DNA of 44,935 bases, taken from UHGV virus genome UHGV-0175244. One strand, 5' to 3'. Position numbers and translations under genes: made by a program. The notes under the pieces were generated by a model. The model was not told the DNA's origin and did not search any database. It worked only from the letters and a program-made list of their open reading frames with translations. Of the stretch, positions 9,363 through 26,987 are shown piece by piece. How positions within the stretch are numbered: the stretch's first letter is position 1; every line of letters begins with the position of its first letter. This stretch comes from a virus.

Positions 9363-10441
9363 CAGAACGGGTCCTCCTGTACTCTGGCTTTTTTCTTTTT
9401 CCGCGCGCCGGGGGCTTCGGGTTCAGGCAGATAAGCATCAGGTGGGCCGACACGGATTTCCGTCAGGGTGCCGTTCTGGTCCTGAGTAAACGTGACTTCC
9501 GAAACAAGCAGTTCGGTATTGTCGAAACCACAGACCGGATCAAAGACAATCACCCGCTGGTTGGGCTGCCACAGCGTACCGTTACCCTGTCGCCAGCCCT
9601 GCACCACATAGGTGGTTTCATCCGTCCGCGCCGCCCGTTGCCGGGCTTCAAAGTCAGCACGCGCAATACAGCCTGCCCCCGTAGCCTGCCCTGTCTGCCT
9701 GATATACATCGGACGGTAACGGGCAATAAATGCGTCCTCTGCGCGGGCCCGCAGCGCGGTGGTGGTGGCCTCACCGAAATCATCGTCGTTTCCGGCACGC
9801 TGCCCCGCCACCTGGTAAACAGAAAATCGCTCCCGGATACTCTTCTCCGTATCGCAGGAAAGGATGTTTTCCCCGAGTACCAGCGCAGTATGTGCCCGCG
9901 TTGAGCCAATACCGCCAATCACCAGCCTGCCGTGCGGGTCGTCGTAAGCCAGTGCCTGCTGCTGACCGAGTATTTTGTTGATTACCTCAATCACCGTTTC
10001 ACCGTGATCAGGCTGAACATCAGGAATAACACCCGACGGCGCACCGCTGTTCACCACCTCAATGCCGAAAGGCGCAGCAAGCGCCTGCGCAATCTGTACC
10101 AGCGATCGTCCGTTAAACTGTGTCGGTTCGGCTGCACAGTCAATCAGGTCAGCGGTCAGACTGCGTCCGGCAATACCGGTGCTGACCGAACGGGCATCGT
10201 AACGAACGGGCGTCGCCTCCACCCAGCCGGTGATCACCAGCTCATCACCAATCAGCACCTCCACTTTTGAACCGTTTTTAATGCGCGGCTGAAGCGTGGT
10301 AATACCCTCATCTCCCGGCCACTGGCGGGTGATCTCCACACTGAAATCCCGCGCCAGCCGTTCAATACCGGCACCGATGCGCACCGATGTCCAGCCATTC
10401 CACTCCCGGCCATTTACCCGTAGCGTGACATTGTCGTTCAT
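9362..10441 (-). CDS. Mu P (gp44)/P2 gpD-like baseplate hub protein
   Basis: 359 aa (MNDNVTLRVNGREWNGWTSVRI...), positioned between the DNA-circularisation protein and gpV. Confidence 0.7.
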   Translation of the reverse strand: MNDNVTLRVNGREWNGWTSVRIGAGIERLARDFSVEITRQWPGDEGITTLQPRIKNGSKVEVLIGDELVITGWVEATPVRYDARSVSTGIAGRSLTADLIDCAAEPTQFNGRSLVQIAQALAAPFGIEVVNSGAPSGVIPDVQPDHGETVIEVINKILGQQQALAYDDPHGRLVIGGIGSTRAHTALVLGENILSCDTEKSIRERFSVYQVAGQRAGNDDDFGEATTTALRARAEDAFIARYRPMYIRQTGQATGAGCIARADFEARQRAARTDETTYVVQGWRQGNGTLWQPNQRVIVFDPVCGFDNTELLVSEVTFTQDQNGTLTEIRVGPPDAYLPEPEAPGARKKKKARVQEDPF

Positions 10442-11766
10442 TGCACTGGCACCTTCAGAGGGATCACCGGCACAAAGCCGGGATGCGTAATGGCATTACG
10501 CCGGATAATGTCCGCGTCACGCGCCGCGTTATCAAACCAGGTCGCCGCCAGCACCAGCGCGGGTAAAACCTCATCCGGTGTGCGCTGAATGATCCGTGCA
10601 GACTGTTCAAGGCGCGTGTTGATATCCGCATTCAGATCTGCTTTCACCCGGCGCAGCGCCAGAAACAGCGCATCACTGGTTGTACGGGACAACTCCTTAT
10701 CAATTGCCGTATTCAGTGTGTCGCGAATGTCAGTCAGTTCTTCCCACGTCGGCAGGTCAACCGTGTTTTTCACCGCCGGTGCATTGTTCAGTGCCGGATG
10801 CGTGACGGAAGGCCAGCCGGTGCTCTGCGCAGGTGTTGTTGCCTGCCCCACTGCGGAATTCAGCATCACCGCGGAAGTTGTTGGCGCAGGCAATCGGGTG
10901 ACGGCATACGCCGCTTCACTGATTGCGGTCGTACGAAGGGTGCTGGCAACCACATTACGCTGCTGCGTAGCCGTGGCGGTGGTTTTACTGTCCGTTTTCC
11001 AGACGCCGCGCGGTTGCAGATCGCTGCCGAGGCTGACACCGGAAAGCGTTTTGATCATGGTGACCAGGTCGCTGGCGTTACCATAAAGGCGTTTCCCGGT
11101 ACGCCACATTTTCTGCACCTGCTCAACGAAATTTTTGCCTGACGATGGCGGCGGCAGAAGTACCGAGATATCCCCCTGCAACAGCCTGGCAGCATCCGAT
11201 ACGGCAGAATCCACCACTTTCATCGCATCAGAAACATACCCCAGCATTATGCTGGCATTACCGATAACGTCGTTCTGCACGAAATCCGCCACACCATCGA
11301 TACTGAAACCGCTGAAGCTGTCACTGATGCAGTCATCCAGTGCAGAACAGGATGACATCAGCGTCTGCGCCGTCGCCGCACCTGAAGTGGGGTAAGAGAG
11401 TTCTCCCGCTTCGACAAACTTCAGGTCAAAGCGGACAATACGCCCTTCACTCTTCGATGTGCTGACCCGAACTTCCCCGTCAACACAGACTTTCAGCTCA
11501 CCGTAAGTCGGATGGACAAGCGTGCCGGGACCGGGTTTATTCAGCGCGTCAATCAGGCGATCGCGCTGGTCAAAGCAGTCATCTCCCACCACATAAGCTG
11601 TGATGGACGGGCGGAAAGTGATTTTCCCCAGGTCTTCGGTATAGGGTTTGTCGCGGTTCGGGTATTCGTGTGTTTCCACACGACGGCCGGTTCCCGCACT
11701 TTCTTCTTCAACCTTAAACGGCACACCGCGAAATGACGCGTCCTGAAGTCTGTCTTTCCACGTCAT
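10438..11766 (-). CDS. DNA circularisation protein N (Mu gp43-like)
   Basis: MTWKDRLQDASFRGVPFKVEEESAGTGRRVETHEYPNRDKPYTEDLG is the DNA_circ_N motif. GGAG SD before the ATG at 11766; the longer 11808 start lacks an SD. Confidence 0.8.
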   Translation of the reverse strand: MTWKDRLQDASFRGVPFKVEEESAGTGRRVETHEYPNRDKPYTEDLGKITFRPSITAYVVGDDCFDQRDRLIDALNKPGPGTLVHPTYGELKVCVDGEVRVSTSKSEGRIVRFDLKFVEAGELSYPTSGAATAQTLMSSCSALDDCISDSFSGFSIDGVADFVQNDVIGNASIMLGYVSDAMKVVDSAVSDAARLLQGDISVLLPPPSSGKNFVEQVQKMWRTGKRLYGNASDLVTMIKTLSGVSLGSDLQPRGVWKTDSKTTATATQQRNVVASTLRTTAISEAAYAVTRLPAPTTSAVMLNSAVGQATTPAQSTGWPSVTHPALNNAPAVKNTVDLPTWEELTDIRDTLNTAIDKELSRTTSDALFLALRRVKADLNADINTRLEQSARIIQRTPDEVLPALVLAATWFDNAARDADIIRRNAITHPGFVPVIPLKVPVQ

Positions 11767-11826
11767 ATAAACTCCGTACATAAAAAATCCCACCGGAGTG
11801 GGACTCATTAACAGATTAATTTTTCA

Positions 11827-13662
11827 TTACCTGCCAAAGCGCGTATAGCCAACATCATGGCTGACATCAAAACCGCTGGATCGCGTTTCCATAACCCGCA
11901 TCCCCGGAGGCAAATTCACAAAAGAGACCTTGATCTCACCATCAACTTTTGGCGCAGAAGCTTTGTTAATCATGAAGGGATTCGAGCCTGTGGCATCGGA
12001 GGCGTTGTTTGACTGAGCCGGATCCACCGCCGGATAAGGTGTGTATCCCCGCGCCGGTATTCCCGTCCCATAAGCATCATAAGCACCCGCGCCCCACTGC
12101 GCAGAGTTAATGGCATCGACCGTGTCACCGGAACTGTCGGTAAACCACTCAATAATTGGCTTCAGCTTGTCCCACATATCCTGAAACCACTTAACAACCG
12201 GCCCCCAGTTATTGATCACCATCCCCAGCGGCGACCAGGCAAAAACTTTCTTAAGGAGTTCCCAGCCGGCCTCAAAATAAGGACCAATGGTTTCCCAGAG
12301 TTTCTTAAAATAAGGTCCGACAACATCCCAGTTAGTGATAATTAATCCCGCAGCCAGGGCTATCGCCGTCGCAATCATGCCAATCGGCGTCATCGACATG
12401 ATCCTGCTGACAATACTGATGGCACCGCCAACGCCCATCAATCCCAGTTTCAGAATCGCAAGACCGGCAGCAAGCCCGACGACGCCGCGAATAACCCGGG
12501 GATTTTCATCCGCAAACTTCGTGAATTTTTCCCCCAACTCCCCCAGCCATTGCGTGATATTTTTAGCGTCACCAGAAAATGCGCCGCCAATAGCTGCAAG
12601 ACCGTTAGTTGCGGTCCCCGTCATTGCCTCCCACAGGTTGGACAGCGTACCAAGCTGAGCCTGAACACGTTTATTCAGGCTGGCCTGTTTATTCATCTTC
12701 TGCTGGGTCTGATCGTAGCCATCCTTTCCTTTATCGATTAGTGCATTGACCACCTGAAGGGTTTCGGCATCATCACCAAATATTGCCTTAAGTACACCAG
12801 TTCGTTTAACGTCGGTCAGTTTTCGCAGCTTTGCCAGTTGCCTGAACATGTTATCAAGACCGCCAAAACTCCCTTTGCCGTCAGTAAAATCGAGCTGTAC
12901 CCCGAGTTTCTGGCGGGCCATGATTTTATTGACGTCCCTGATTTTCTTAACGCTTAATCCGGACTGGATAACTTTTCGCAGGGCGTTACCTGCCGACTCC
13001 CCGTTCATCCCCATCTGATCCATCATGACGCTGATGGGGGCAAGGCTCTGTGCAGCCTGAAGACCGTCCTTGTTCACCATCTTCAGAACAGAGCTGGTTT
13101 TAGTGAAGAAGGACAACATGTTGGTATCGTCAACGCCCAGATAAAACGCCTTCTGGATAGTGTCGAACAGCCCCATCATGTCTTCTGACGCCGTTCCGGT
13201 AGCATCCTGCATCTTTGCAGCAAACTCAGCAGCCGCTTCCGGTGTTTTTTTCAGTTGTACCGCAAGATAAGCTGTCGCTTTACCCACACCGCCAAGAATG
13301 TTTTCTGCCGGGATCCCCTGACGCACCAGCATCTGCATCATGTTCTGGAAATCAGCCGTTGTACCGGGTAGCTGGTTACCCAGACCAATAGCCAGTTTAT
13401 TGATGTCCTGAAAGCTCTTTCCGACCTCACCGTTCGCATCCATCATGGCAACTTTCAGCCCGGTGGCGGCGTTTTCCTGATCGGCATAAGATTTCAGGGA
13501 AAGCGTCAGACCCGCAGCCAGTCCGCCACCAAGCGCCAGCCCACCCTGTGACGCTTCTTCCGCCTGGCGTTTAAATCCCCGGATTTTCTTTTGCATTTTC
13601 GACAGCGCGGGAGAAAGCCTGTCGACACCGGTGATCAACGCCTTAAGCTCAAATTCAGCCAT
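11827..13662 (-). CDS. Tail tape measure protein
   Basis: 611 aa, Gly/Ala-rich with a hydrophobic central segment. It lies downstream of the chaperone pair. Confidence 0.85.
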   Translation of the reverse strand: MAEFELKALITGVDRLSPALSKMQKKIRGFKRQAEEASQGGLALGGGLAAGLTLSLKSYADQENAATGLKVAMMDANGEVGKSFQDINKLAIGLGNQLPGTTADFQNMMQMLVRQGIPAENILGGVGKATAYLAVQLKKTPEAAAEFAAKMQDATGTASEDMMGLFDTIQKAFYLGVDDTNMLSFFTKTSSVLKMVNKDGLQAAQSLAPISVMMDQMGMNGESAGNALRKVIQSGLSVKKIRDVNKIMARQKLGVQLDFTDGKGSFGGLDNMFRQLAKLRKLTDVKRTGVLKAIFGDDAETLQVVNALIDKGKDGYDQTQQKMNKQASLNKRVQAQLGTLSNLWEAMTGTATNGLAAIGGAFSGDAKNITQWLGELGEKFTKFADENPRVIRGVVGLAAGLAILKLGLMGVGGAISIVSRIMSMTPIGMIATAIALAAGLIITNWDVVGPYFKKLWETIGPYFEAGWELLKKVFAWSPLGMVINNWGPVVKWFQDMWDKLKPIIEWFTDSSGDTVDAINSAQWGAGAYDAYGTGIPARGYTPYPAVDPAQSNNASDATGSNPFMINKASAPKVDGEIKVSFVNLPPGMRVMETRSSGFDVSHDVGYTRFGR

Positions 13663-13837
13663 GTGTGCGTTTCTCCTGCTCTATCCTGTTTGCCTGACTG
13701 ACCAGCAAGGGAATTTCACTGATCGGCATATTCAGCAATTCGAAGGGATTAATGCGCCAGTAGCTGGCGCAGTCAAAGAAGCGATCAGTGAGGTATTCAG
13801 CCGTCAGGCCTGGAGGAAAAAACCGGCCACAAGCCAC
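13655..13837 (-). CDS. -1 frame extension of tail assembly chaperone (long form made by programmed frameshift; joined product 14073..13655)
   Basis: The ORF is open in the -1 frame across the U UUU UUC site and has no SD or ATG of its own. This arrangement is conserved in tailed phages (G/GT-type). Confidence 0.65.
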   Translation of the reverse strand: MACGRFFPPGLTAEYLTDRFFDCASYWRINPFELLNMPISEIPLLVSQANRIEQEKRTHG

Positions 13838-14073
13838 GCCGCTGCATTCAGGTCTGCCGGAGACATCTGGTCGACAGAGCTTTGCGGCACTTTCGCCAGC
13901 CGCACAATGTATTTCGACACCACATGCGCCAGAAGTCTGACGGACTCATCCTGATTCATCTGGTAGGGATACCCCAGCTCGCGGACATCTTTCCCGGTGG
14001 GCTCATCAAACTCCAGTACGGAGAGTGTCTCGCCATGAGCGGTAATCGGTTTCTTTAACTCAAGCTCTTTCAT
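13804..14073 (-). CDS. Tail assembly chaperone (short form)
   Basis: 89-aa ORF between the tube and tape measure genes. It ends just after the slippery heptamer. Confidence 0.75.
   Translation of the reverse strand: MKELELKKPITAHGETLSVLEFDEPTGKDVRELGYPYQMNQDESVRLLAHVVSKYIVRLAKVPQSSVDQMSPADLNAAAWLVAGFFLQA
13816..13822 (-). other. Slippery heptamer U UUU UUC (programmed -1 ribosomal frameshift site)
   Basis: The mRNA reads GCC GGU UUU UUC CUC CAG GCC UGA. A shift to -1 gives ...GFF PPGLTAEY... Confidence 0.65.
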
Positions 14074-14429
14074 TACTGGTAATCCCCTTCTTCACCGTGG
14101 AATTCAAGATCGACCGTGCCTTCTTCGGCATTATGGTTCGCTTCGCCGTGCAGCCAGGCAGACGACAGTACATAGACCTGACCGTTCGCCAGCTCGGCAG
14201 TGATGGTCATCTCATCAGACGAGGTGATTTTGTTCACCGGAAAATTCTTCGGCACCTTGAAGGTCCCTTTGACATAAGGCGCACGGTGAGTTTCCTTGCG
14301 GTCCACTGAACCGTCCAGGCCGATGATGTCATCATTGACCGTCCTGTTCATGGGCACCTCAATGCCGCCGGTCAGCGATAGCTGCTGACCGTCAATTTTG
14401 AAATAACAGGTTCCCCCGATACGGGCCAT
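14073..14429 (-). CDS. Tail tube protein (Mu gp40-like)
   Basis: 118 aa, directly downstream of the sheath gene. Confidence 0.8.
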   Translation of the reverse strand: MARIGGTCYFKIDGQQLSLTGGIEVPMNRTVNDDIIGLDGSVDRKETHRAPYVKGTFKVPKNFPVNKITSSDEMTITAELANGQVYVLSSAWLHGEANHNAEEGTVDLEFHGEEGDYQ

Positions 14430-15925
14430 TATGCGGACTCCTCTGAATACTGAAGACGGAACTGGTTAACCACGGCAAAGACACGCAACTGGTTAACATA
14501 GTCAGGCGGGAACAGCGTGTTCAGGCGGTTCGGATCGCTGGCATCACGCTCCACAACCAGGTACTGCTTAAACAGTTCGTAGTTTTCCACGATCCCCGCA
14601 CGCTCAAGCTGACGGTAGGTTGCCAGCAGTTCCCCTTTGATCACCGCCGGGGTGACAATCGCCTGACCGGGACCAAAGCGGGTACCGTCACTGGCAAGCT
14701 TGTGACGCCCGTACTTACTGGTAATGACGGATTTCAGTTTGCGCAGTACATAGGCACTGGTATGCAGCGTCTCGCTGTCGAGGTAGCTGTTATCCGCAAC
14801 CCCGTAAGCGTTTTTCCTGTACGTGGTGACATCACGCTGAATGCGCAGCACCCCGCTTTCGACATATGCCGTTGCCACGCCATGAGACAGCAGGGTCTGT
14901 TGTTCGGTCATCGTGAACCGTTTCCCCTTCGGCGCAGGCAGCATACCCACCAGCTCACCGGTCTGCGTGGGACGTGCCGGATCGTTGCGAATAAACACCG
15001 CTGCGCGGGCGGTACGGCTTGCCGCCAGCTCATCGGCAGGCGTCTGGGTCTCTTTTTCGTACCCCGCCAGGGTAATGTGCTGCTGGTTAAACTGGTCACC
15101 TGCGGTCACCAGCTCTGACAGCGTGCCGATCTTTGCCGTATACACATGACCATACAGCTGACGCGCATAGCTCCAGCGACCGCTGGTATCGTTCATCTCG
15201 GTCACCAGCGTGTTAACGGAGGCCGTGTCGTTGAACGGCAGGCCGATATAATCAAACGGCTCATCCGCCATTGCAGCCACCGCGCCGGTGAGAACCGGAG
15301 CACCCGTTCCGGCGGTACCCGTCGCCACGGCAATCTGTACGCCCGCTGGCAGCACTTCGCCCCCACCGAAGCCGTAGTAATTGAGGCTGACAGGAATTTC
15401 ATTCCCGCAAAGCCCCTTATGACGCGCGGTCAGCGTGACCACACCAGCCGAAGATGAAGCTGTAAACGGCAGAGTCGGAACGGCATTGATGGCATCCTGG
15501 ATACTGCTGGCAATCGTCGTGACGTTATCGCCGTTGGTCACCGGAGCCTGCACGCGGGTACGTCCCACATAGACATTCACCGTGCCGCTTTCGGTTGCTT
15601 CCCCGGTCACCGTCAGCGTAACCGTTGCCGCCGCGCCTGTGGCTTCCGGAACGGCAATCACATACAGCTCACCAAACGGGTCGGTCTGGCGATAAGCCTC
15701 GACCATACGCGCCAGCTGACTTCCCGCACCACAAATCTGGCGTGCATAGTCTGCCGACGGCATTAGCACCAGACTGTTGGCAACAATCTCTGCACCGTTA
15801 TTGGCATGACCAATCAGCAGCGATGCCCCGCTGCTCTGTGCAGTATTCGCAGCCTGGTTATCCATTTCCGCATAAAACAGCGGAACCAGCGTATTCGACG
15901 GAATGGTGTTAAAGCTTGTCGTCAT
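14429..15925 (-). CDS. Contractile tail sheath protein (Mu L/gp39-like)
   Basis: 498 aa, in sheath-tube-chaperone-TMP order. Confidence 0.85.
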   Translation of the reverse strand: MTTSFNTIPSNTLVPLFYAEMDNQAANTAQSSGASLLIGHANNGAEIVANSLVLMPSADYARQICGAGSQLARMVEAYRQTDPFGELYVIAVPEATGAAATVTLTVTGEATESGTVNVYVGRTRVQAPVTNGDNVTTIASSIQDAINAVPTLPFTASSSAGVVTLTARHKGLCGNEIPVSLNYYGFGGGEVLPAGVQIAVATGTAGTGAPVLTGAVAAMADEPFDYIGLPFNDTASVNTLVTEMNDTSGRWSYARQLYGHVYTAKIGTLSELVTAGDQFNQQHITLAGYEKETQTPADELAASRTARAAVFIRNDPARPTQTGELVGMLPAPKGKRFTMTEQQTLLSHGVATAYVESGVLRIQRDVTTYRKNAYGVADNSYLDSETLHTSAYVLRKLKSVITSKYGRHKLASDGTRFGPGQAIVTPAVIKGELLATYRQLERAGIVENYELFKQYLVVERDASDPNRLNTLFPPDYVNQLRVFAVVNQFRLQYSEESA

Positions 15926-16079
15926 CGGTGTTCACCTTTTTATTCACGCGCCGGATATCACCCGCTGCTTCACGGCGCAGCCAGTAGTTGTTCTCGTCAA
16001 CATTTCGCCCTTCGGCGGGCAAAAGGTCGCCGCGGGCAGGGTCAGGCACTGACCGCCCTTTAACAGGTTTGACAAACAT
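15909..16079 (-). CDS. Small DUF2635-like protein (Mu gp38 position), 56 aa
   Basis: Not in the ORF track because it is under 60 aa. MFVKPVKGRSVPDPARGDLLPAEGRNVDENNYWLRREAAGDI... overlaps the sheath start. Confidence 0.55.
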   Translation of the reverse strand: MFVKPVKGRSVPDPARGDLLPAEGRNVDENNYWLRREAAGDIRRVNKKVNTDDDKL

Positions 16080-16087
16080 GAGGATCC

Positions 16088-16648
16088 TCAGGAAGGAAGG
16101 GTTATTTCGGTGTGATGTTCGATATCGCCGTCAGGCCCGTTACCGGGATCGAGATAATCGACATCAATCGCCAGCGTTTGCAGTTCATCCAGACTGTTCA
16201 GATCATCCTGCTGGCGGGTATCGTCTTCAGTCAGCTCGCTGATGACCGAAAAATCGAACTGATAAATCAGCTCATGACGATTCAGATCCAGCAGCGTGCC
16301 GCCGTCATAGGTAATCGGGTTACCGCACGCTTCCGGGTTCCAGCCCAGCAGGGCCTTAAAGAGCATCTGCCGGACATCGTCCACCACATCATACGAGGCA
16401 AACTGACCGCGCTCATCACGCCCGTTACTCAGTATGACAACCACGGAGAAGCCCTCTTTCAGCTCCTGCCAGTAGTCGGTCTGGCTTTTGTTTTCTCCCG
16501 GAGAGTCATCACCCGGTACCACATACGCCGCCGGGAGTCTCAGCTTTCCGACCTCCGGCAGATTTTTGAACTGTGCCGCGCCTGCCACCCGGTTTTCAAA
16601 ATACGGGCAGCGGGCACGCAGCGCAGCAATAACAGGCGTCAGTTTCAT
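16088..16648 (-). CDS. Mu gp37-like tail/neck protein
   Basis: 186 aa, positioned between the head-completion genes and the sheath. Confidence 0.6.
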   Translation of the reverse strand: MKLTPVIAALRARCPYFENRVAGAAQFKNLPEVGKLRLPAAYVVPGDDSPGENKSQTDYWQELKEGFSVVVILSNGRDERGQFASYDVVDDVRQMLFKALLGWNPEACGNPITYDGGTLLDLNRHELIYQFDFSVISELTEDDTRQQDDLNSLDELQTLAIDVDYLDPGNGPDGDIEHHTEITLPS

Positions 16649-17151
16649 CTGTGTCGTCGCTCCGGCTTCAGTGATTTACGCAATTCCCGCGCCAGAAAAT
16701 AGCGTGTCCAGCTGCGGTTCTTTTCAAGAGTTTCCACCATGAAGTTATTACGTGGAGCCAGTCGCCAGCCGCTGCCACCGGATGCACCACGATGATGACT
16801 ACGACGACGTTTTGCTCCTCCCCGGACACCAAAAAACAGAAACGCCGGATAGAAGTCACCAGAGATCATCCGGTTCCCCTTCCCGTTGCGCTGGTTAGGG
16901 GCAATGCGTGTCATAAAACCGGCTCGCTTTTTACTGGCTCTCGGCACCATATAACCAATCGAACGAGCCAGGCGTCCGGTCTGATAACCGGGGTTTTCAC
17001 CCGGTGCCGATCGCGCACGGCGCATCACCAGCCGACGGGCATCACGCATATGACGCTGCCCAATCGTGACAAACGCCCGCCGGACACGGGCGCGGTTAAA
17101 GCGCATCTCGGCGGGCTGCTGAACATCAACGTGAAAAAAGGGAGTCGCCAT
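16645..17151 (-). CDS. HK97 gp10-like tail/neck completion protein
   Basis: 168-aa basic protein, in head-tail joining gene order. Confidence 0.6.
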   Translation of the reverse strand: MATPFFHVDVQQPAEMRFNRARVRRAFVTIGQRHMRDARRLVMRRARSAPGENPGYQTGRLARSIGYMVPRASKKRAGFMTRIAPNQRNGKGNRMISGDFYPAFLFFGVRGGAKRRRSHHRGASGGSGWRLAPRNNFMVETLEKNRSWTRYFLARELRKSLKPERRHR

Positions 17152-17536
17152 TGCTGCCTCCGTGACTCTGCCTACATTCGCCCAGCTCCGTACACTCCAG
17201 CAGCAGAAAGCGCCGCGCCCCGTTCAGATCACGCTGACGTTTCACCCGGTACACACTGTCACCGCAGACCACCTCATAATCAGCGGTGATCCCCCGGCGG
17301 TAACGAATGGTGATGTAATGGGTGATGGCGTCCCCGGTCTGCGCGGTTTCCTGCCAGGTGGTGGCACTGGTCTGGACAACCTTCGCCCATGCCCGGAACG
17401 CAACCGGGTATTGAGGCTCCACGCCAAAGTTATCCGCGGGCATATCCACCCGCTGGCGGATCAGGACGCGTTTATTCAGTTCGCCGGGGTCCGGCAGAAT
17501 GTAGGTTGCGCTGGTCTGCGCCTGACGAATTTTCAT
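17126..17536 (-). CDS. Head-tail adaptor / head closure protein
   Basis: 136 aa (…ITIRYRRGITADYEVVCGDSVYRV…), typical of the head-closure family. Confidence 0.7.
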   Translation of the reverse strand: MKIRQAQTSATYILPDPGELNKRVLIRQRVDMPADNFGVEPQYPVAFRAWAKVVQTSATTWQETAQTGDAITHYITIRYRRGITADYEVVCGDSVYRVKRQRDLNGARRFLLLECTELGECRQSHGGSNGDSLFSR

Positions 17537-17856
17537 TGCGGAAAGTACCTGTACGGGCCGACAAGCCAGCCAAAACTCTGCGGCATGTCGAGTTTCTCCA
17601 CTTCCGTAACCGACGAGCGGTTTTCGTAAAAATGGCTGATAAGCATCAGCATCCCCAGACGAATATCATCCGGCAGGTGCAGCCCGTCCGGATCGCTGTC
17701 CGGAATGGTTTCATCCGGTGCATAGAGCTTCCGGTTCAGATACGTTTCCGTCCGCTTTTGTGCCGCACATGCCAGCAGTTGCAGATGGCGGTCATCAGTA
17801 TCGAAATCCTCATCCAGCCGGAGTTGGGCTTTAATCTCTTCCATTGTCAGAAGCAT
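17533..17856 (-). CDS. gp6-like head-tail connector protein
   Basis: 107 aa (EEIKAQLRLDEDFDTDDRHLQLL...), the typical connector N-terminal motif. Confidence 0.7.
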   Translation of the reverse strand: MLLTMEEIKAQLRLDEDFDTDDRHLQLLACAAQKRTETYLNRKLYAPDETIPDSDPDGLHLPDDIRLGMLMLISHFYENRSSVTEVEKLDMPQSFGWLVGPYRYFPQ

Positions 17857-17858
17857 AC

Positions 17859-18059
17859 TCAGCCCTCTTTACTGGTCGTGGCTTTTTTCTCTTTTGCCGC
17901 TTTACTGCTTTTTGCACTGATTCCGCGCTCTGCTAACCCGGCCTGAAGTGCAATCTCCTGCACCCGGGCAGGAAGCGCCCCGTCGTCATACTCACCGGCC
18001 TGAATGACCTCAACACGCATACCGTCCGGTGACCATTTCAGATCTTGTTTCAGGATCAT
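17859..18059 (-). CDS. Small hypothetical head-module protein (66 aa)
   Basis: ORF between the capsid and connector genes, with a Lys-rich tail. Confidence 0.5.
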   Translation of the reverse strand: MILKQDLKWSPDGMRVEVIQAGEYDDGALPARVQEIALQAGLAERGISAKSSKAAKEKKATTSKEG

Positions 18060-18078
18060 GATTCTTCACCCATCAGAA

Positions 18079-18102
18079 CAGGGGCGCAGTTCAGCGCCCC
18101 TG
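18079..18102 (-). terminator. Strong stem-loop just downstream of the capsid gene
   Basis: CAGGGGCGC-agttca-GCGCCCCTG, a perfect 9-bp stem. No long U tract follows, so it is more likely a stabiliser or partial terminator. Confidence 0.45.
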
Positions 18103-18107
18103 AGTGA

Positions 18108-19226
18108 TTACGCCGCAGCAATCTTCAGCAGTTTGATGGCCTGCGAATCGACCAGCATGCCGCCGGTGCGCTTGGTGGTATAAAAACCGACAAACGGTTT
18201 ATTGGTGTACGGATCGCGCAAAATGCGGGTACCGATACGGTCAACGATGGTGTAACCCCGTTTGAAGTTACCAAATGCAATGGCTTTCGCATCCGCGGCG
18301 ATATCCGGCATCTGCTCGTTTTCAGCGATACCGTAACCCGCCAGAGAGGACGGCTGCCCCAGTTCCAGCCCCGGACGCCACAGATAGTTACCCTCGGTGT
18401 CTTTCAGCAGACGAATGGCAAACAGGCTGTTGTTGTTCATCATGAACTTCGCACCGGTGCGATGTGCCTTACGCAGCGTGTAAATCAGTTTGATAATGGC
18501 ATCAGCGGTCACTGCCGTCGCTTCACCGGATACAATATGCTGAAGTTTGCCGAACGCACGTACCTTATCGGTTTCATCCGTGGACTCATACGCCAGGAAC
18601 CCTTTCGGCTTCTTGGTGCCATCACCAGTGGTAAAGGCAATTTCTTCCTGTTCGGCAAATTCGGTTGCCAGCTCGCTGTTGATCCAGGCCTCTACGTTGA
18701 AGAAGGCATCATCCAGCATTTTCTGGGTGGCCTGCGGGTTACCGTAGATTTCCCCCATGAAAGGTTCAATCAGTCCCAGTTTTGAGGTGGCGGTCTGGGA
18801 GCGCGCGTCAGTCTCGCCAACCCATCCGGAAGCCGTGCCGCCCAGATTCACCAGTTTTTTGTAGTCGGAACCGCCAACAGTGATTACCGTGGCTTCCTGG
18901 CGCATCACCACTTCATCTTTCAGCAGGGTGAGAATGTTGCGATCCAGTGCTTCCGGCACGGCATAGCCACCGTCTTCATCGGTGCCCACCTGCAATGCCT
19001 TACGCTCCAGATCGCGCAGACCGTCTTCACGGCCTTTACGCAAAAAGCCCACAAACGCTTCTTTATGCTCGGTGGCCAGTTTATTTTGCGCGCCACCTGC
19101 CGGACGTTTCAGCTCAAGCAGCTCTTTTTCAAGATCGCTTTTGAGATTTTCCAGCTCGCTGAGTTTCCCGTTCAGGGTTTCCACCTGCCCGGCAAGCTTG
19201 CCTTTTTCCTGCTCAATCGCATCCAC
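18108..19226 (-). CDS. HK97-family major capsid protein (main reading frame; 5' end apparently frameshifted, see 19172-19312)
   Basis: 372 aa with a coiled-coil delta-like N-terminus and a conserved capsid core (GGYAVPEALD...WRPGLELGQPSSLAGYGI). The track start is an SD-less GTG. Confidence 0.85.
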   Translation of the reverse strand: MDAIEQEKGKLAGQVETLNGKLSELENLKSDLEKELLELKRPAGGAQNKLATEHKEAFVGFLRKGREDGLRDLERKALQVGTDEDGGYAVPEALDRNILTLLKDEVVMRQEATVITVGGSDYKKLVNLGGTASGWVGETDARSQTATSKLGLIEPFMGEIYGNPQATQKMLDDAFFNVEAWINSELATEFAEQEEIAFTTGDGTKKPKGFLAYESTDETDKVRAFGKLQHIVSGEATAVTADAIIKLIYTLRKAHRTGAKFMMNNNSLFAIRLLKDTEGNYLWRPGLELGQPSSLAGYGIAENEQMPDIAADAKAIAFGNFKRGYTIVDRIGTRILRDPYTNKPFVGFYTTKRTGGMLVDSQAIKLLKIAAA

Positions 19227-19312
19227 GCGCTTGTCGTTCTTTGCTTTAAGTCGTCAAACTTCTGCTGCAGCTCCTGCGCGACCTGTTCGACATCTTTAAT
19301 ATCTACCGCCAT
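19172..19312 (-). pseudogene. Capsid 5' fragment: 46-codon ORF carrying the real SD/ATG, out of frame with the capsid body
   Basis: AGGAG-N7-ATG at 19312 comes right after the protease stop. It reads MAVDIKDVEQVAQELQQKFDDLK and would continue ...AKNDKRVDAIEQEKG in the capsid frame if one A were added to the A-run at 19245-19247. Confidence 0.6.
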
Positions 19313-19326
19313 CGTATTTCTCCTGA

Positions 19327-19977
19327 TTAGAAGTTCAGATTTTTCAGTGCATTCAGTGCAGAGCCCACATCCTCAGCGTCGCGCAGGGACAGTGCGCCAT
19401 AGCCCCCGGCCATGAATGCTTTGGCCTGGGTACGGGAGAGTCCGACATCACGCAGGACTCTTTCGATTTTTTTCTGTTCGGGGATTTCCCCGCGGGCCAG
19501 TGCGTTCTTGACGTCGCTGATCCGCGCCTCGTCGTTAGACGGGAACGTCACCAGGCTGACTTCCCAGAGGTCGATTTCTTTCAGCAGAAAGGCTTCTTTG
19601 CTCCGGTCGTATTCCCAGTCTTTCAGGACGTACCCAATAGAAAGGCCGGTTAACGAACCGGCCTTCATGTGTGCATGTGCGCGTTTTGCGAGGGGATCAT
19701 CATCAATAAGCAACCGTCCCCTGACGTAAAGCCCGACATCGTCTTCCTTCATTTCGGTGTAAACACCGATGGGTTCATCCATGCGGTGCTGCCAGAGCAG
19801 CGCAGGTAACGCTTTTCTGTCACTCCACGCCCGCAGGGAAGCAGCAAATGCCCCGGACATCACCACATCATCGTGGCTGTCCTTTACACCAAAGACGGAG
19901 CCATACCCTTCAAACTCACCGGAGTCACTGACAGATTTCAGACTCAGCGGTACATCAAGACGTTGTTTCGTCTGCAT
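19327..19977 (-). CDS. HK97-family prohead protease
   Basis: SGEFEGYGSVFGVKDSHDDVV...GLSIGY...EVSLVTFPSNDEA motifs. ATG at 19977 with an AAGGA SD. Confidence 0.85.
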   Translation of the reverse strand: MQTKQRLDVPLSLKSVSDSGEFEGYGSVFGVKDSHDDVVMSGAFAASLRAWSDRKALPALLWQHRMDEPIGVYTEMKEDDVGLYVRGRLLIDDDPLAKRAHAHMKAGSLTGLSIGYVLKDWEYDRSKEAFLLKEIDLWEVSLVTFPSNDEARISDVKNALARGEIPEQKKIERVLRDVGLSRTQAKAFMAGGYGALSLRDAEDVGSALNALKNLNF

Positions 19978-21196
19978 TGGCGTTATCCTTCTGCTTACCG
20001 GCCTTACTGCCATCGGAGGGTTTCGTGGTCATGTTCATCGGTGTGAGATAGACATCACCACCGGGACGCGGATTCATATCTTCCAGGTCGCGGCAGTCAT
20101 TGGGAGAGTAAATTCCCCAGTTGATCCCGGTGGCGTAGGCTTCAAAACGGGACTTCATATCCCCGCGCAGTAACGCCCCGGCGTTAAATTTGGCGTAATA
20201 AACGCCCTGCTTACTTTTTCGTACCAGTCCGGTGTTGATCCGCTGTTCGATGCGGGTCAGATACGGCACCAGTGAATAGTTGATAAATCCCAGCCCCAGC
20301 TCTTCGATATTGTTGAAGGTGGCGCGATCGGTGTTCTGCACCATGTGCAACGGCACCCGGAACAGACGACAGATTTCTTCAAGCTGAAACTTGCGGGTTT
20401 CCAGGAACTGGCTGTCCTCGGCGTTCAGCGCCATCGACTTCCAGTCCAGCCCCATCTCAAGGATCATTGGGCGGTGAGCATTGCCAAGCCCGGTGTGACG
20501 CTCCTCAAAATCTTTCTTCAGGCGCTCGTAAGCCTGATCTGACAGCGTCTGCTCTGTACGCAACACACCCGACGTCACCGCGCCATTGCTGAACAGTCTG
20601 GCCCCGTGCTCTTCGGTCGCTGCCGCCAGCGATATTGCCTCGCGGGCATAGGCGATGGGATTCAGCCCCACCAGTCCGTCCAGCGTCAGCGTGCGCACAT
20701 GCCAGATATCCTCCTGGCTCAGTACATCCGTGGAGCCATCCGGGAATGTGACCTGATAGACCGGCTCCCAGCTACTGTTAAGCTTCGGTACCACACAGCC
20801 GGGATCGACGGGCAGCAGTTCAGCCACTTCGCCAAATGTTTTCACTTTGTAGGCGTAAAAGTTTCCCCGCAGGCACAGACAGGTGACCACCAGCTCCCAG
20901 AACTCCTGCGGCGTCATATAGCCATTGGGATGCGTGGAGATCAGCTTATGCAGACGTTCGCCAGTGGCTCTCTGCTTCAGGCTGCCGTTCAGGTGATACA
21001 GGTTGCAGGGCAACATCCCGACCGACTCCGCCAGCACCCTGACGCAGGAAAAAACCGCCGTCAGTCGCATGGCCCTCTGGCTGCTGATCTGCTTTCCGGT
21101 ATAGGTGTCGTATGACAGCCCGATAGCATCCACCAGCTCTGCTGGCGTGGTCACCGGTGCGTCACTTTTTCGTTGAAATAATCCCGAAAAGAACAC
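19955..21196 (-). CDS. HK97-family portal protein
   Basis: 413 aa, located between terL and the protease. Confidence 0.85.
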   Translation of the reverse strand: MFFSGLFQRKSDAPVTTPAELVDAIGLSYDTYTGKQISSQRAMRLTAVFSCVRVLAESVGMLPCNLYHLNGSLKQRATGERLHKLISTHPNGYMTPQEFWELVVTCLCLRGNFYAYKVKTFGEVAELLPVDPGCVVPKLNSSWEPVYQVTFPDGSTDVLSQEDIWHVRTLTLDGLVGLNPIAYAREAISLAAATEEHGARLFSNGAVTSGVLRTEQTLSDQAYERLKKDFEERHTGLGNAHRPMILEMGLDWKSMALNAEDSQFLETRKFQLEEICRLFRVPLHMVQNTDRATFNNIEELGLGFINYSLVPYLTRIEQRINTGLVRKSKQGVYYAKFNAGALLRGDMKSRFEAYATGINWGIYSPNDCRDLEDMNPRPGGDVYLTPMNMTTKPSDGSKAGKQKDNANADETTS

Positions 21197-21378
21197 TATT
21201 TACCTCCACCAACAGACATCTGTGTACGGTCGAGATATCGCGCTACCAGCCACGACCAGAACAGGCACAACGCCCCGGCAACAACAAACCCCGCCGGGGG
21301 ATAAATCAGCCAGGCGCCATACGCCAGCAAAAGCGCCCCCAGCACGCCCACCAGAGGCGCGAGAATCAGCATGATCAT
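21196..21378 (-). CDS. Small membrane protein (60 aa, two TM segments)
   Basis: Hydrophobic ORF between terL and the portal gene. Confidence 0.5.
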
Positions 21379-21389
21379 AATTACCTCAG

Positions 21390-23123
21390 TTAAAGCGAGC
21401 GGATCCCGTAGGACTCAATGTGGTCGGACAGCGTGTCTTCTTTCTCATACAGCATGGCTCTGCCAACCGCCATAATCAGCGCAACTGCACCATCGATTTT
21501 GTTTTCCGCCTGCTCTTTGACGGGCTTCACCACATCATCGTTACCCGGAATGGTTTTGCCGACCACGTTACCGATACACCAGGTCATGATGGGATTGCCA
21601 TCATGATGAAAGCGCCCCGATTCAATTGCCGCTTCCAGCTCTTTCATCGGGTCGGACATGTTGGTGTAGTTCTGAATGATGGTGATGGGATTCAGGTCTT
21701 CATCAGCAAGGTCATGTGACAGCCCGGTCGCCCCGAAGGGGTCGATGGGTGACTCGCTGACCGGGCTGATTTTGTTCGCCGCTTTGGCCTCTTCGAGGAT
21801 GTAGCGATAATCCACCTCCGCACCATCGGTAACGGTCAGGACGCCCATTTCCACCCATTTCTGAAAGCGTTCGGCTGTCCGGCGATCTTCATTTTTCTCG
21901 ACGCTGTACACCGTGTCATACGGTACCCAGAAACGCGGGGCCACACTATAGTAATGCGTTTTACCGTCAATCTCGCGGGTATAAAGTCGCGCCATGCTGT
22001 TCATATCCAGCTTACGCGCCAGGTCAAAGGCCAGAATGCACGGCTGCCCCTCGAACTGCTCAAGGGTCAGTGATTTATCCTCGCAGCTCTGCCAGCTCAC
22101 CAGGTTGAAATACGCCGAACGCGCCGACACCCAGATATTGAGGTGTTTTGTTTTAAAGACGTTTGCCAGACGGGCGTTATTTTTCGCACGCTGCTGCTGA
22201 CTTAACAAAAATTCGCGATAAACCGACACGCCAATATTCGGGTTAGCTTTTTCCAGCACCTGCGGGTCGGTCCAGTCATCGCCTTCGTCAACGGTATAGA
22301 TGATCCCGAACAGTTCATCGTTGGGTACCGACCCGTTGAGCATCTCGATAACTTCCCGTCGCTTGTCGTAGCACGGCCCCTCAATGTTGTACCCGGCAGT
22401 AGTAATGGCCCACATCAGTGGCTGACGTCTCGCCCCCATCCCGGTAAGCATCGTGGTGTAAAGCGCATCGGTGGCGTGCTCGTGATATTCATCCACCACC
22501 GCACAGTGGGGTGATGAACCATCACCGGGGTTACCGATCAGCGGTTCAAACCGCGCGCCATCCTCCGGACGATTCATGTTTGAGGCGTTAACCTCAATCC
22601 CGAACGCTTCCGTCAGCATGGGTGTGCGTTTACACATCAGTCGCGCCGGGCGAAAGACTTCCCACGCCTGTTTCTCTGTCGTGGCACCGGAATACACTTC
22701 CGCGCCAAACTCGTTATCACAGGCAAAACAATACAGGGCAACACCGGCAGAGATTGCCGATTTGCCGTTCTTACGGGGGATTTCGGTATACACCTCACGG
22801 AAGCGGCGCAGCCGGGAGCCTTTATTGACCCAGCCAAACGCGCAGCAGATCACAAAGAGCTGCCACGGCTCCAGCGTGATGGGCATCCGTTTAAATGCCC
22901 ACTCACCCTTGGTGTGCGGCAACAGCTGAATAAATTTCGCGGCTCGTTCAGCCAGGTCCTTGTCGAAGCGGTAACGAAACGACTTACTTTTTTCCTCCAT
23001 CAGGTCATCAAGATGGCGCTGGCAGGCCTGAATCACAAACTGGCAGGCCACAATCTTTCCGCGCACGACATCCCGGGCATACTGATTGGCAGCATTTACG
23101 TTGGGGTAAGATTTCCGGCTCAT
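21390..23123 (-). CDS. terL: Terminase large subunit
   Basis: 577 aa with a Walker-like GKS motif ([11 protein letters not shown]) and a nuclease C-terminal domain. It sits downstream of terS. Confidence 0.9.
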
Positions 23124-23623
23124 GATTCGATGATTTTCAGAAACGGGTTAGTGGCTTTCTTCTGCCCCGCCAGGCCAATCAGACGCTGGCGGCTGCTGGG
23201 GTCGAGTCCGAGCATTGCCCCCGTACTGCTCATCTCGGACTCCTGTTCTTTTTTGGCGGTCAGCTCCGGATTTTTGACCATACCGCCCATTGCACCGGTG
23301 ATGGTGTTGCCCTGTCTGGCAATATTTTTCACGGCACGTCGCCAGAACTCATAGGCCACGCACCACCGCTCAAGTACCGCCAGGTCAGTCACGCACAGCA
23401 GGCCCTGACCGCAGAGTTCTTTGGTTGTCAGTTGCCACATGATCGTGGCGAGAGGGAGATCTTCTTCAGCGAACCACTCCGGTGGGTCAGCACCTTTGAT
23501 GGGCGTAAAAACAGGTTCATCTTTATTCAGGGCTCGCTTGCCGGGGTTTCCGGCCAGCACCTTGCGCGCCGTTGGCTTGGGGCGACGCCCGGAACGCCCC
23601 GCCGTTCCAGCCATATGCGGCAC
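23120..23623 (-). CDS. terS: Terminase small subunit (P27 family)
   Basis: [29 protein letters not shown] is the typical P27-family N-terminus. Confidence 0.8.
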
Positions 23624-23721
23624 TCCTGGTTAAATTTCATTTTTCGCGGGTATAAAAAAACGATGGGGCGGGCAGTCCGGAAGACGTCAGGCTGCAGGGA
23701 TTTGACCCGCCCTCCCCTCAT

Positions 23722-23767
23722 GCAGTTGAGAATTATTATCACTAGGCAGTTGAGAATTATTATCACT
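23722..23767. repeat. Two tandem 22-bp direct repeats (GCAGTTGAGAATTATTATCACT, 2-bp spacer) in the HNH-terS gap; candidate cos / terminase recognition element
   Basis: Perfect copies at 23722-23743 and 23746-23767. The second copy overlaps the HNH stop codon. Confidence 0.5.
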
Positions 23768-24113
23768 TTAGCCGTTCACGGGCCGTCTTCGCCTTATGGC
23801 ACGGCCAGCACAGGCTCTGCAGATTACTGTCTGCATCGGTGCCGCCATGCGCTTTAGGGATGATGTGGTCAACGGTTTTAGCTTCACGCACCACACCGGC
23901 ACGCAGACATAACTGACACAGGCCTTTGTCACGTTTCAGCACACGCGCACGGATAACGTCCCACTTCGAACCATAACCGCGCTGGTGACGGGATTGTCCT
24001 GGCTTATATTGCGTCCAGCCTTCGCTTTTGTGGCTTTCACAATAGCCTGACGGATCTGTGGTGGTATGGCGGCAACCGCGAACACGGCAGGCTTTTGGGA
24101 TTCGTGGCGGCAT
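23763..24113 (-). CDS. HNH endonuclease (terminase-associated, HK97 gp74-like)
   Basis: CQLCLRAG...VDHIIPKAHGGTD...NLQSLCWPCHKAKT HNH motif. It lies immediately upstream of terS. Confidence 0.85.
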   Translation of the reverse strand: MPPRIPKACRVRGCRHTTTDPSGYCESHKSEGWTQYKPGQSRHQRGYGSKWDVIRARVLKRDKGLCQLCLRAGVVREAKTVDHIIPKAHGGTDADSNLQSLCWPCHKAKTARERLK

Positions 24114-24524
24114 ATGTACTAATCTCCGATTTATCCAAATTTCACTGCCATAATGCCGACATTCTCTGCCATTATTGACTCCGTTTATCCGTTAAAAGGG
24201 ATATCAGTTAAGTTATCCCGTGCAGGGTATAAGCCATTGTCGAGACCATTCATTGAATGGCCTCTGCAATAACCGATGTCTTTCCATCAGTCCGCCACCA
24301 CAAAGAATCTTTTTTGCCATAAGGCAGGAGGTTCATCTTTCAGTGGCTGCCAGTGTTATTTCCCCACTTACTGGCTTGGGTTGTTTCGCTGTATTGCCGC
24401 AACTGGTGGTGCACAGATTTAGTTAAATCTGTTCTCGCCTGAACTATCTTTTACATACCCGGATTGTGGGGATGTAAATCACGGTTTCATTATCAAGCCC
24501 ACCCGTAGATGGGCTTTGGAATGG

Positions 24525-25043
24525 TCACTTTGGCAGTCCGGGGATCGATATTTGCGCCTGCTGCTCAAGCCTTTCGATTCTTGCTATGAGTTGCGGTTTT
24601 TTGATCCTGCCCCAGCGGTTCAGCAAGCGTCCTGACATACTGGCAACATCCTTTTCCTTCATGAACTCCAGCATTAACTCGTTGTGCTCTCTTTGGTATG
24701 AGTGAGCCATCTCCATCAGCCTGTCACGCATCCAATTAAATGCTTTGATAAACGCCTCTTTGATGGCGGCAGCTTTTTTGCCGGTAAACGACATGATGAT
24801 GTACATCGCGCCGTCTTTGGAAATTTCATATTCAACATACTGATTACCCTTGTGTTCATAGGTAACCCGCGAAAAGTTGCTGGTTAGAAATTCATCCGAA
24901 CAGTCTAGCTTTTCGATTTTCTGAATGATGTGGTGATGCTGCTTGTCGAAGTAAGCTGCTACCTTGCGGGAGGTTGTGATCACGCGATCACCAGAAACAA
25001 CCACCATGTCCCGGAAATCGAGATTAGCCAATTGATGATTCAT
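24525..25043 (-). CDS. Rha-family phage regulatory protein
   Basis: ITTSRKVAAYFDKQHHHIIQKI...ISKDGAMYIIMSFTGKKAAAIKEAFIKAFNWM matches the Rha family pattern. ATG at 25043. Confidence 0.7.
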   Translation of the reverse strand: MNHQLANLDFRDMVVVSGDRVITTSRKVAAYFDKQHHHIIQKIEKLDCSDEFLTSNFSRVTYEHKGNQYVEYEISKDGAMYIIMSFTGKKAAAIKEAFIKAFNWMRDRLMEMAHSYQREHNELMLEFMKEKDVASMSGRLLNRWGRIKKPQLIARIERLEQQAQISIPGLPK

Positions 25044-25192
25044 AGCGTCTTTACCTTTTAGAAAGTGAGCCTGTCTCACAGAAAAGCCGTCCCGAGATGG
25101 TCGCCACCATATACGGCAGTTCTCAGGCTCAACTTTCTGAAAGGCTCGGGTGATGTAATATGCGCGTGAGATGCGCTGTGAAATTCAGATGT

Positions 25193-25216
25193 AAAAAAAG
25201 CCCCGCATCGCGAGGC
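25193..25216 (-). terminator. Rho-independent terminator after the lysis cassette
   Basis: Minus strand: GCCTCGCgatGCGGGGC (one mismatch) followed by TTTTTTT. Confidence 0.55.
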
Positions 25217-25248
25217 TCATTAAATGGACTTTGTGATTTGCAAAAAAA

Positions 25249-25707
25249 TTATTTCAGGCATTGCGTCCTGATGTACTCCTGCAGGTAGTTAACCTGCGCG
25301 GTTATCCTGTCGATTCCACTTCTGAGACGGTAATAATTGAGTTCAGCATCTGCTGTAAGTCTTGGGCTTTCTCCATCGCCCATGCCGCTGGCTCTGGTCG
25401 TTGACTTTGCACAGGTGGCGGCGACTTGCAGGCGCTTACGACCAGCAGAAACATCAGCACGGAGACTTTCGATAGTCGCGTTAGCATCAGCAAGCTCCTT
25501 TGTGTATCTGGCGTCGAGTTCTGCTACATCACGTTGACGCTTCTGCATGTCAGCGATAGTGTCATTTGCCAGGCTGAGTTGCTCAGTCACTTTGTCCCGC
25601 TGCCTTTTGAACTCGGTGGCGTTGTCGTGGTAGTGGCTGGCCAGCCAGCCGAGGCTGACTATCAGGCAGATCACAACAGCGCTGATAATGGCTGCTAATC
25701 GGCTCAT
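25249..25707 (-). CDS. i-spanin (Rz-like)
   Basis: N-terminal TM ([19 protein letters not shown]) and a coiled-coil periplasmic domain. ATGA overlap with the endolysin. Confidence 0.8.
25302..25493 (-). CDS. o-spanin (Rz1-like lipoprotein) embedded in the +1 frame of Rz
   Basis: Lipobox LVVSAC followed by the Pro-rich [13 protein letters not shown]. It lies entirely inside Rz. The exact start is uncertain. Confidence 0.7.
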
Positions 25708-26213
25708 TTCTGCCCCCACAAACAAACTTCGCGCTCAATCTCGCGGCGAGTCACCAGGCCTTTCCACTGCTTGCCCTTGGCATAGGTCCAGCGGCGCAAC
25801 TGGTCACACGCCCACTTCTGGTCGCCCTGGTTGATTTTGCGCAGTAGCGTTGAAGTCTGGAAATTGCCAGCGCCGACGTTATACGCGAATGAGTAAAGCG
25901 CCCCACGCATTGTTTCGGGGATCGGCTTCTGGATGTATGGGTTAATCTGGCGGGCGACGGCGTTCAGGTCTTTACTGAGAAGCGCACGGCATTCAGCCTC
26001 GGTGTACTTCTTGCCAAGAATGATATCTTTGCCAGTATGGCCATAGCAGACAGTCCAGACGCCTACCACATCCTGATAAGGGTTGTATCGCACACCTTCA
26101 AGACCATCGTTACCGGTTGGGCCAGTGATGAGCGCAGAGGCAATGGCTATGGCGCCACCGCCGCCGGCGATCACGCCAATCAGTTTATTCCTCATTGATG
26201 GCGTCATGCTCAC
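25704..26213 (-). CDS. SAR endolysin (T4-lysozyme/GH24 family)
   Basis: Gly/Ala-rich weakly hydrophobic N-terminal segment [19 protein letters not shown], with E-(9)-D-(6)-T catalytic spacing in [18 protein letters not shown]. Confidence 0.85.
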
Positions 26214-26524
26214 CCCTGTGTATCACTTGCGATCCGCTTCAAGGCCTCGGTTACCACTTCGGCTGAAGCCGGGCGGTTACTTCCTGGCTTAGCGGAGACA
26301 TCAGCCAGATAACTGGCCAACAGTTGCGTGCGCTTTTTCTCTTCATCCAGTCGCTCTCGCTCTTCCTTGCGCTTTGCGTAATACGTCTTGATTGTGAAGA
26401 AGGCAGAGATCAGGGCGCCAATGATGAAGACATAATCCTGCAGACTCAGGACGGAAAAGATACCAAGCAAGGCTGACCACCAGTAAGGCAGATTGTGACC
26501 ATCGGTTGGGTTCATACGTTGCAT
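26210..26524 (-). CDS. Holin (two TM segments, dual-start MQRM motif)
   Basis: 104 aa with TM segments [14 protein letters not shown] and [15 protein letters not shown] and a charged C-terminus. It lies upstream of the endolysin. Confidence 0.75.
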
Positions 26525-26719
26525 CTCTCACCTCCGATAATGTTCGGGGTGCTATCTGTAGTCAGTAAAAGGTTCAGGGCCGTCGGGCTGATTTACCAAC
26601 AAAGCGTCGAGGGTGATTCCCGCGACCCTGAAAATAAAAAAAACCGCTCAAGGCGGGAAGAAATACCAAGGGTAAAAAGTGACGGCGCGGTAGCCGTAAT
26701 GGTCCCAAGGTAGAGGGAT

Positions 26720-26794
26720 TGGAGCATCTGGCGGGGATCGAACCCGCATATTCTGGTTGGAAGCCAGACGTAATTACCAAACTACGACAGATGC
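26720..26794 (-). tRNA. Phage-encoded tRNA-Gly (anticodon UCC)
   Basis: A hand-folded cloverleaf gives acceptor GCATCTG/CAGATGC, D stem GTAG/TTAC, anticodon stem TCTGG/CCAGA with loop CTTCCAA, T arm GCGGG-TTCGATC-CCCGC, discriminator U and an encoded CCA. Confidence 0.8.
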
Positions 26795-26880
26795 AATCTG
26801 GTTCAGGGCTCTTGCGCGGCGGGTGTCGACGTGTCGTGCAGCACGTCTCTACCCAAGAGCCCTGACCGGATCGCAGGCAT

Positions 26881-26919
26881 AAAAAAGCCCAAGGCGTTAA
26901 CCTCGGGCTTGAATTTTTT
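26881..26919. terminator. Hairpin terminator downstream of the putative late promoter (tR'-like), bidirectional shape
   Basis: AAAAAA-GCCCAAGG-cgttaa-CCTCGGGC-TTgaaTTTTTT (one mismatch). U tracts follow on both strands. Confidence 0.55.
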
Positions 26920-26958
26920 GCTTCGGAACGACTGAACGGATTCCCAGCGTTAGGGATG

Positions 26959-26987
26959 AATCTAACCAGTTTTTCCGGAGATTGCAA
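26959..26987 (-). promoter_or_regulatory. Candidate late promoter (pR'-like): TTGCAA -17 nt- TAGATT
   Basis: It lies on the minus strand ~45 nt downstream of the Q stop and upstream of the terminator, tRNA and holin. Found by hexamer inspection only. Confidence 0.3.

Follow-up and report, generated by a model that had tools for sequence, protein, structure and literature searches.

A recent one-base deletion very probably inactivates the major capsid gene of an otherwise complete SfI/SfII/SfIV/ST64B-type prophage of Klebsiella pneumoniae

In the 44,935-nt virus genome UHGV-0175244, in the following called the window, the major capsid gene lies on the minus strand in two pieces that are read in different frames. 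This raises the question whether a base was lost in sequencing or assembly, whether the gene was broken by a mutation, or whether the ribosome changes its frame at this point. The ribosome-binding site (19313..19324) consists of AGGAG at 19324-19320 and a 7-nt spacer, is conserved in relatives and precedes the start codon ATG at 19312-19310, which follows directly after the stop codon TAA (19329-19327) of the protease gene. From this start an ORF of 46 codons (19172..19312) extends to the TGA at 19174-19172 and encodes the product MAVDIKDVEQVAQELQQKFDDLKQRTTSAWMRLSRKKASLPGRWKP. It is composed of the capsid codons 1-21, a Leu22 in the place of Phe22, Lys23 and 23 out-of-frame codons in front of the TGA. 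The Leu22 codon TTA is the frameshift junction, and Lys23 is kept, encoded by AAG instead of AAA. A Pfam search with the 46-aa ORF gave no domain match. The capsid body with the codons 23-401 and the stop codon (18108..19253, minus strand) is found in the -1 frame, which is closed upstream by the TGA at 19256-19254, is open from 19253 and stops at 18108. In the mechanical ORF listing it begins at the GTG 19226, which has no Shine-Dalgarno sequence, and comprises 372 aa. The layout of the locus is thus the one described in the original prediction.

The 372-aa body was identified as the HK97-fold Phage_capsid domain PF05065 with an E value of 1.3e-79 and a score of 268 bits against a gathering cutoff of 24.2, covering the profile from 1 to 280 of 280. 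Immediately upstream of the capsid gene, the prohead protease of the Peptidase_S78 family (19327..20013, minus strand) is intact and has the length annotated in relatives. It is preceded by the intact portal protein gene (19955..21196, minus strand; PF04860, E=4e-108), which encodes 413 aa as in relatives. The gene order is thus portal, S78 protease and capsid, and a separate scaffold gene is absent. About 114 N-terminal residues precede the PF05065 domain, and codon 22 falls inside this region. In these respects, the shell domain after an N-terminal extension, the adjacent S78 protease and the missing scaffold gene, the locus resembles that of HK97 gp5, although the capsid sequence itself is closer to the RcGTA capsid (6TB9, E=8e-75). 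By this analogy the N-terminal residues, about 114 in number, are the putative counterpart of the HK97 delta or scaffolding domain, and the lesion would fall within it. After the capsid stop codon a GC-rich hairpin (GGGGCGC...GCGCCCC, 18070-18104) was observed that resembles an intrinsic terminator or an attenuator, and its G-run (18080) has one extra G in two E. coli relatives.

The gene was then aligned with the corresponding region of five relatives, namely E. coli MRSN346647, the Shigella phage SfIV, the Salmonella phage ST64B, the phage phiP27 and a Klebsiella phage. All five have a single capsid gene of 401-407 aa with a start equivalent to the ATG 19312, and none starts at an internal GTG, so that a reading in which the split is the normal state of the gene fails. 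In each of the five relatives, a single capsid protein aligns both to the first 21 residues of the short ORF and to the -1 frame starting with codon 23. The two ORF pieces are therefore one gene that is split by a frameshift of 1 nt, as had been supposed.

The DNA alignment identified the base that is missing. The relatives read GAC TTC AAA GCA (TTT in two distant relatives) and the window reads GAC TT- AAA GCA, which places the deletion at 19247..19248 on the minus strand (mRNA GAC-TT^AAA-GCA) and the lost base as the C of the Phe22 codon TTC. The gap between 19248 and 19247 was also obtained in a blastn comparison of the whole module, and the protein alignment showed the sequence ...FDDFKAKNDKR... 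in all five relatives. When the C was added to the window, a protein of 401 aa was restored without any other amino acid change, and its sequence matches the capsids of E. coli MRSN346647 and of a sibling isolate, GCA_902499475.1, at 100% identity. The original prediction had instead added an A to the run at 19245-19247, which gives Leu22; this repair has to be corrected. The C that was lost stood alone, with TT on one side and AAA on the other, so that no homopolymer has changed its length. The case cautions that an obvious homopolymer repair can give the wrong base and the wrong ancestral residue. A second intact allele with Leu22, TTA AAG GCA, was suspected from a shifted blastn gap against E. 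coli R18 and was discarded, as R18 has a synonymous change of AAA to AAG (TTC AAG GCA). The Leu allele TTAAAGG was not found in a scan of viral contigs. Transcriptional slippage or phase variation was ruled out because the site has no long homopolymer or repeat tract.

To what kind of element does the split gene belong? The prophage extends over 1804..43679, as seen from its att repeats, its integrase and the flanking host proteins. The att site is a direct repeat of at least 46 nt at 1804-1849 and 43602-43647, with the right copy overlapping the 3' part of the tRNA-Arg(UCU) gene (43603-43679), the attachment site beside folD. The integrase gene (42424-43587), which adjoins the att site and this tRNA gene, is intact, and so are the two att sites. 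At the other end of the prophage, next to the att repeat, a gtrA/gtrB/gtrC-like cassette for O-antigen glucosylation was found in this Klebsiella host (2610-5411); for its specific glucosyltransferase (3840-5411), E. coli genomes gave matches of 98.5%. At 26720-26794, a phage-borne tRNA-Gly(UCC) gene separates the Q-type antiterminator from the holin gene. In the stretch that links the repressor to the leftward early genes, the window has 79 nt (36814-36891) that are missing from the otherwise 100% identical isolate locus in GCA_032477195.1.

Exact K. pneumoniae matches were obtained for FolD and for the two proteins of the left flank, with counts that range from about 880 to at least 1,000 contigs per protein. 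Judged from these sequences, the host chromosome is that of K. pneumoniae. An Enterobacter mori host had been considered, as its FolD showed 99% identity among the matches listed for species representatives, and was ruled out by the exact K. pneumoniae matches.

The structural module of the prophage (about 5.4-24.1 kb) is of the SfI/SfII/SfIV type. When the region 6417-24114 was compared with three E. coli prophages of 97.6-98.4% identity, the capsid deletion was the sole coding indel in 17.7 kb, and the remaining gaps, at about 18080 and at 23709-23770, were intergenic. All structural ORFs except the capsid have the lengths annotated in relatives. The structural module has no coding lesion besides the capsid deletion, in agreement with the original view that the other prophage genes are intact.

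The prophage is a mosaic: its late module is about 98% identical to E. coli and Shigella phages of the SfI/SfII/SfIV type, and its early region (25.7-42 kb) is 93-96% identical to Klebsiella phages. In the capsid region, however, the identity to the Klebsiella phages of the phage collection is as low as about 75%. This suggests that the late-gene module was recently exchanged between the genera. A metagenome chimera of E. coli-type late genes and Klebsiella-type early genes was ruled out by isolate assemblies. In the isolates GCA_052899345.1 and GCA_032477195.1 the early region was found through the terminase junction with 1 and 0 mismatches to the window, respectively, and an isolate contig obtained in the tape-measure look-up carries the late module together with the gtr cassette.

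We then asked whether the missing base is an error of the assembly, in which case the organism would have an intact TTC and the gap would be an artefact of base calling or of the consensus. Single-base deletions are the commonest assembly artefact, and the allele is restricted to a single strain or study, which speaks for such an error. Carriers of the deletion were located through the exact-protein index alone, where 8 public contigs were listed for the exact 46-aa product and 10 for the 372-aa product, and three accessions were checked at the DNA level. These were Logan SRR5963258, Logan SRR5963406 and the ENA assembly ERZ28628485, in which the allele lies on scaffold_10. GACGACTTAAAGCAAAG is present in each of them, and over 6-20 kb their identity to the window is 100.000%. 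The ENA carrier, OLMM19-1_SAMN07501313_METAG-scaffold_10, has a length of 294 kb and a run of Ns in the place of the bases 25378-25503 of the window; the window is therefore a further, separate assembly. The deletion was thus seen in at least 4 separate assemblies and at least 3 accessions. The carrier samples apparently come from one study and one strain, as indicated by neighbouring run numbers and the 100% identity, and represent independent libraries of a single mutational event. A literature search for the carrier run and BioSample accessions found none. The deletion is present in the DNA of the strain, in several separately sequenced samples.

The other observations likewise argue against an artefact. 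The lost base is a lone C outside a homopolymer, and 17.7 kb contain no second coding indel. The C is read in near-identical siblings and in over 1,300 relatives whose local sequence is the same, which rules out a systematic error specific to this context. A sequencing or assembly error is therefore very unlikely, and the homopolymer error that had been proposed first was abandoned on the same grounds: a lone base is lost, independent read sets agree and siblings with identical flanks have the C. Assemblies of raw reads from sister samples can hence settle the choice between error and mutation without read pile-ups.

The siblings were reached with the exact tape-measure sequence, which is specific to the lineage (29 index blocks). 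The exact TerL and Rha-family proteins are very widespread, with 3,166 and 10,265 blocks, and were uninformative for finding sibling Klebsiella prophages. The isolate contig GCA_902499475.1:CABVMK010000051.1 showed 4 differences from the window in 17,836 nt: two are SNPs, one is a 1-nt indel in the DUF2635 gene of the contig, and the fourth is the capsid C, which the contig has. Its capsid gene was called intact with 401 aa. Similarly, the human gut metagenome contig ERZ917414 is 99.92% identical to the window and has an intact capsid gene. Since a sibling that differs at 4 of 17,836 nt and one of 99.92% identity keep the capsid C, the deletion is very recent and private to one repeatedly sampled sub-lineage.

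Two other lesions were noticed among these relatives. The isolate contig lacks one A in its DUF2635 gene (the equivalent of position 16063, where the window is intact), which shortens the product to 44 aa from 56; this is either a second private frameshift in the lineage or an error in that assembly. In a relative of 97.9% identity (Logan SRR8533827, contig 727) the TTC is intact and codon 17 of the capsid gene is changed from CAG to TAG, apparently an independent knockout of the 5' end of the capsid gene, seen on one contig only.

The distribution of the allele was followed in larger collections. A region of 601 nt around the junction matched 1,101 records of complete E. coli genomes and 33 phage records, among them SfI, SfII, SfIV, phi467, ST64B and phiP27, and nearly all matches were one base longer than the query. 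E. coli genomes contain up to 4 copies of this module each. With an 81-nt probe centred at the junction, the deletion allele was found in none of 1,207 copies in 1,056 E. coli genomes; no copy reached 99% identity and all have the extra base. Exact-pattern scans of the GTDB species representatives, the IMG/VR viral contigs and the JGI metagenome contigs did not find the deletion allele, and the intact allele was present in at least 120 IMG/VR viral contigs. The deletion is not a conserved feature of this capsid gene.

Could the ribosome nevertheless restore the frame, by programmed or adventitious -1 frameshifting, and keep the prophage functional or leaky? The deletion itself creates the sequence C_UUA_AAG (19244..19250, minus strand) and with it a zero-frame A_AAG tetramer, the most shift-prone one in E. 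coli (PMC4066793). A slip of the Lys-tRNA from AAG to AAA at this hypothetical site would, as computed, give a full-length capsid protein that is wild type except for F22L, and the strain with the deletion allele has been recovered repeatedly. At a second hypothetical site, G_AAA_AAG (19202..19208, minus strand, in the frame of the short ORF), a -1 slip would give a product with 14 scrambled residues. The capsid junction shares the zero-frame A_AAG and two overlapping open frames with the programmed -1 sites of dnaX, of IS3/IS911 and of the phage tail-chaperone G/GT genes. In contrast to these sites, it has no canonical heptamer, no stimulator and no conservation. C_UUA_AAG does not follow X_XXY_YYZ, as only the A-site tetramer A_AAG fits. 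The 94 nt downstream fold with a minimum free energy of -25 kcal/mol (z=-0.79), and 47 of 200 shuffled sequences fold as well. Upstream, an AGGAG-like sequence occurs no closer than about 23 nt, as part of ordinary, conserved coding sequence. The two-frame arrangement is absent from the 1,207 E. coli copies, and the sibling with 99.98% identity has a normal gene.

In E. coli, tetramers of the A_AAG type without a stimulator shift at the background level, with 0.147% compared to 0.112%, and the best heptamers without stimulators reach about 0.3% (Sharma et al. 2014, PMC4066793). Since unstimulated sites are close to background and the downstream fold is unremarkable, a meaningful rescue by slippage is not expected, and the capsid protein is required in hundreds of copies per particle. 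Frameshifting is even less probable than an assembly error, in line with the lower rank that recoding had been given originally. Just as improbable is a wider version of it, in which the deletion suppresses itself because the slip at C_UUA_AAG makes the capsid a low-output, frameshift-dependent product with F22L in a disposable scaffolding domain, or in which selection within the host favours a throttled or grounded prophage in gut-colonising K. pneumoniae.

Internal initiation, or termination followed by reinitiation, would yield a truncated capsid protein from the GTG 19226 (lacking 29 residues) or the GTG 19184 (lacking 43) that still assembles, and is the least probable of the alternatives. 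Both codons are in the capsid frame, GTG 19184 lies 8 nt before the stop of the short ORF and thus near a terminating ribosome, and the delta domain is removed after assembly anyway. However, neither GTG is preceded by a Shine-Dalgarno-like sequence, GTG 19226 sits within the translated short ORF, and no orthologue starts at either of them. In addition, the N-terminal coiled-coil scaffolding region is needed for the assembly of the HK97 capsid, and the capsid protein without this fused domain aggregates (PMC10275583).

We conclude that, very probably, a recent one-base deletion inactivates the major capsid gene of an otherwise complete K. pneumoniae myovirus prophage of the SfI/SfII/SfIV/ST64B type, with a predicted loss of head assembly. 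Ribosomes from the sole good start, AGGAG-N7-ATG 19312, would make the 46-residue peptide and stop at 19172. The remaining 379 codons, which comprise the rest of the delta region and the whole HK97-fold shell domain, would not be translated at useful levels because a Shine-Dalgarno sequence is missing in front of the GTGs 19226 and 19184 and -1 slippage without a stimulator amounts to about 0.1-0.3%. Slippage or re-initiation may occur at a low level. The prophage would keep repression, excision, replication, lysis and the expression of its gtr conversion genes. Heads from this prophage would not be assembled, unless a second related prophage in the same genome complements the defect in trans, and the element would be a freshly grounded prophage. 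A reversion would be possible by any +1 insertion or -2 deletion in the overlap of the two open frames of about 80 nt (19253-19175). Of the inactivating mutation that had been proposed, the lesion in the DNA was confirmed, as it is reproduced in several samples and absent from the siblings; the defect in particle formation is what we infer from it.

In an annotation, the capsid locus is best entered as a frameshifted pseudogene, with the remark that the prophage, complete as it looks, is probably particle-defective; tools for prophage completeness would probably score the element as complete. For the strain, we predict that induced cells lyse but that this element supplies no heads, and that +1 insertions in the 80-nt overlap could produce revertants. 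A suspected recoding site or assembly error was thus, as a clean negative, most likely an ordinary pseudogenising mutation that was caught very early.

The prophage can be compared with known relatives of the same type. SfI, SfII, SfIV and phi467, serotype-converting myoviruses of Shigella and E. coli, show about 98% DNA identity across the capsid region and have the same order of terminase, portal, S78 protease, capsid, connectors, sheath and tube, with a gtr cassette adjoining the attachment site. In contrast to the window, their capsid gene is intact with 401 aa and particles are formed. The window differs from them also in its early region of the Klebsiella-phage type and in its integration at tRNA-Arg(UCU) beside folD in K. 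pneumoniae. ST64B of Salmonella Typhimurium belongs to the same phage family and has 94.4% DNA identity to the window in the capsid region. It is the closest precedent: a frameshift in one of its tail assembly genes makes it defective, according to PMC7067206, which cites Figueroa-Bossi & Bossi 2004. Both prophages are inducible and intact but for a single frameshift in one structural gene, which abolishes infectious particles in ST64B and is predicted to do so here, and both defects are revertible in principle. By the same account, in ST64B a tail gene is broken and the allele is conserved across the serovar lineage, whereas here the capsid gene is affected, in one strain of K. pneumoniae.

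A canonical slippery sequence was found elsewhere in the structural module, with properties that the capsid junction lacks. The region of the tail-assembly-chaperone gene (13655-14073, minus strand; 89 aa, PF10109) contains U_UUU_UUC at 13822-13816. The gene stops six codons after this heptamer, and the -1 frame runs for 60 codons to the start of the tape-measure gene; in one relative the -1 extension was called as a separate 60-aa gene. This site is the expected, conserved programmed frameshift of the tail chaperone.
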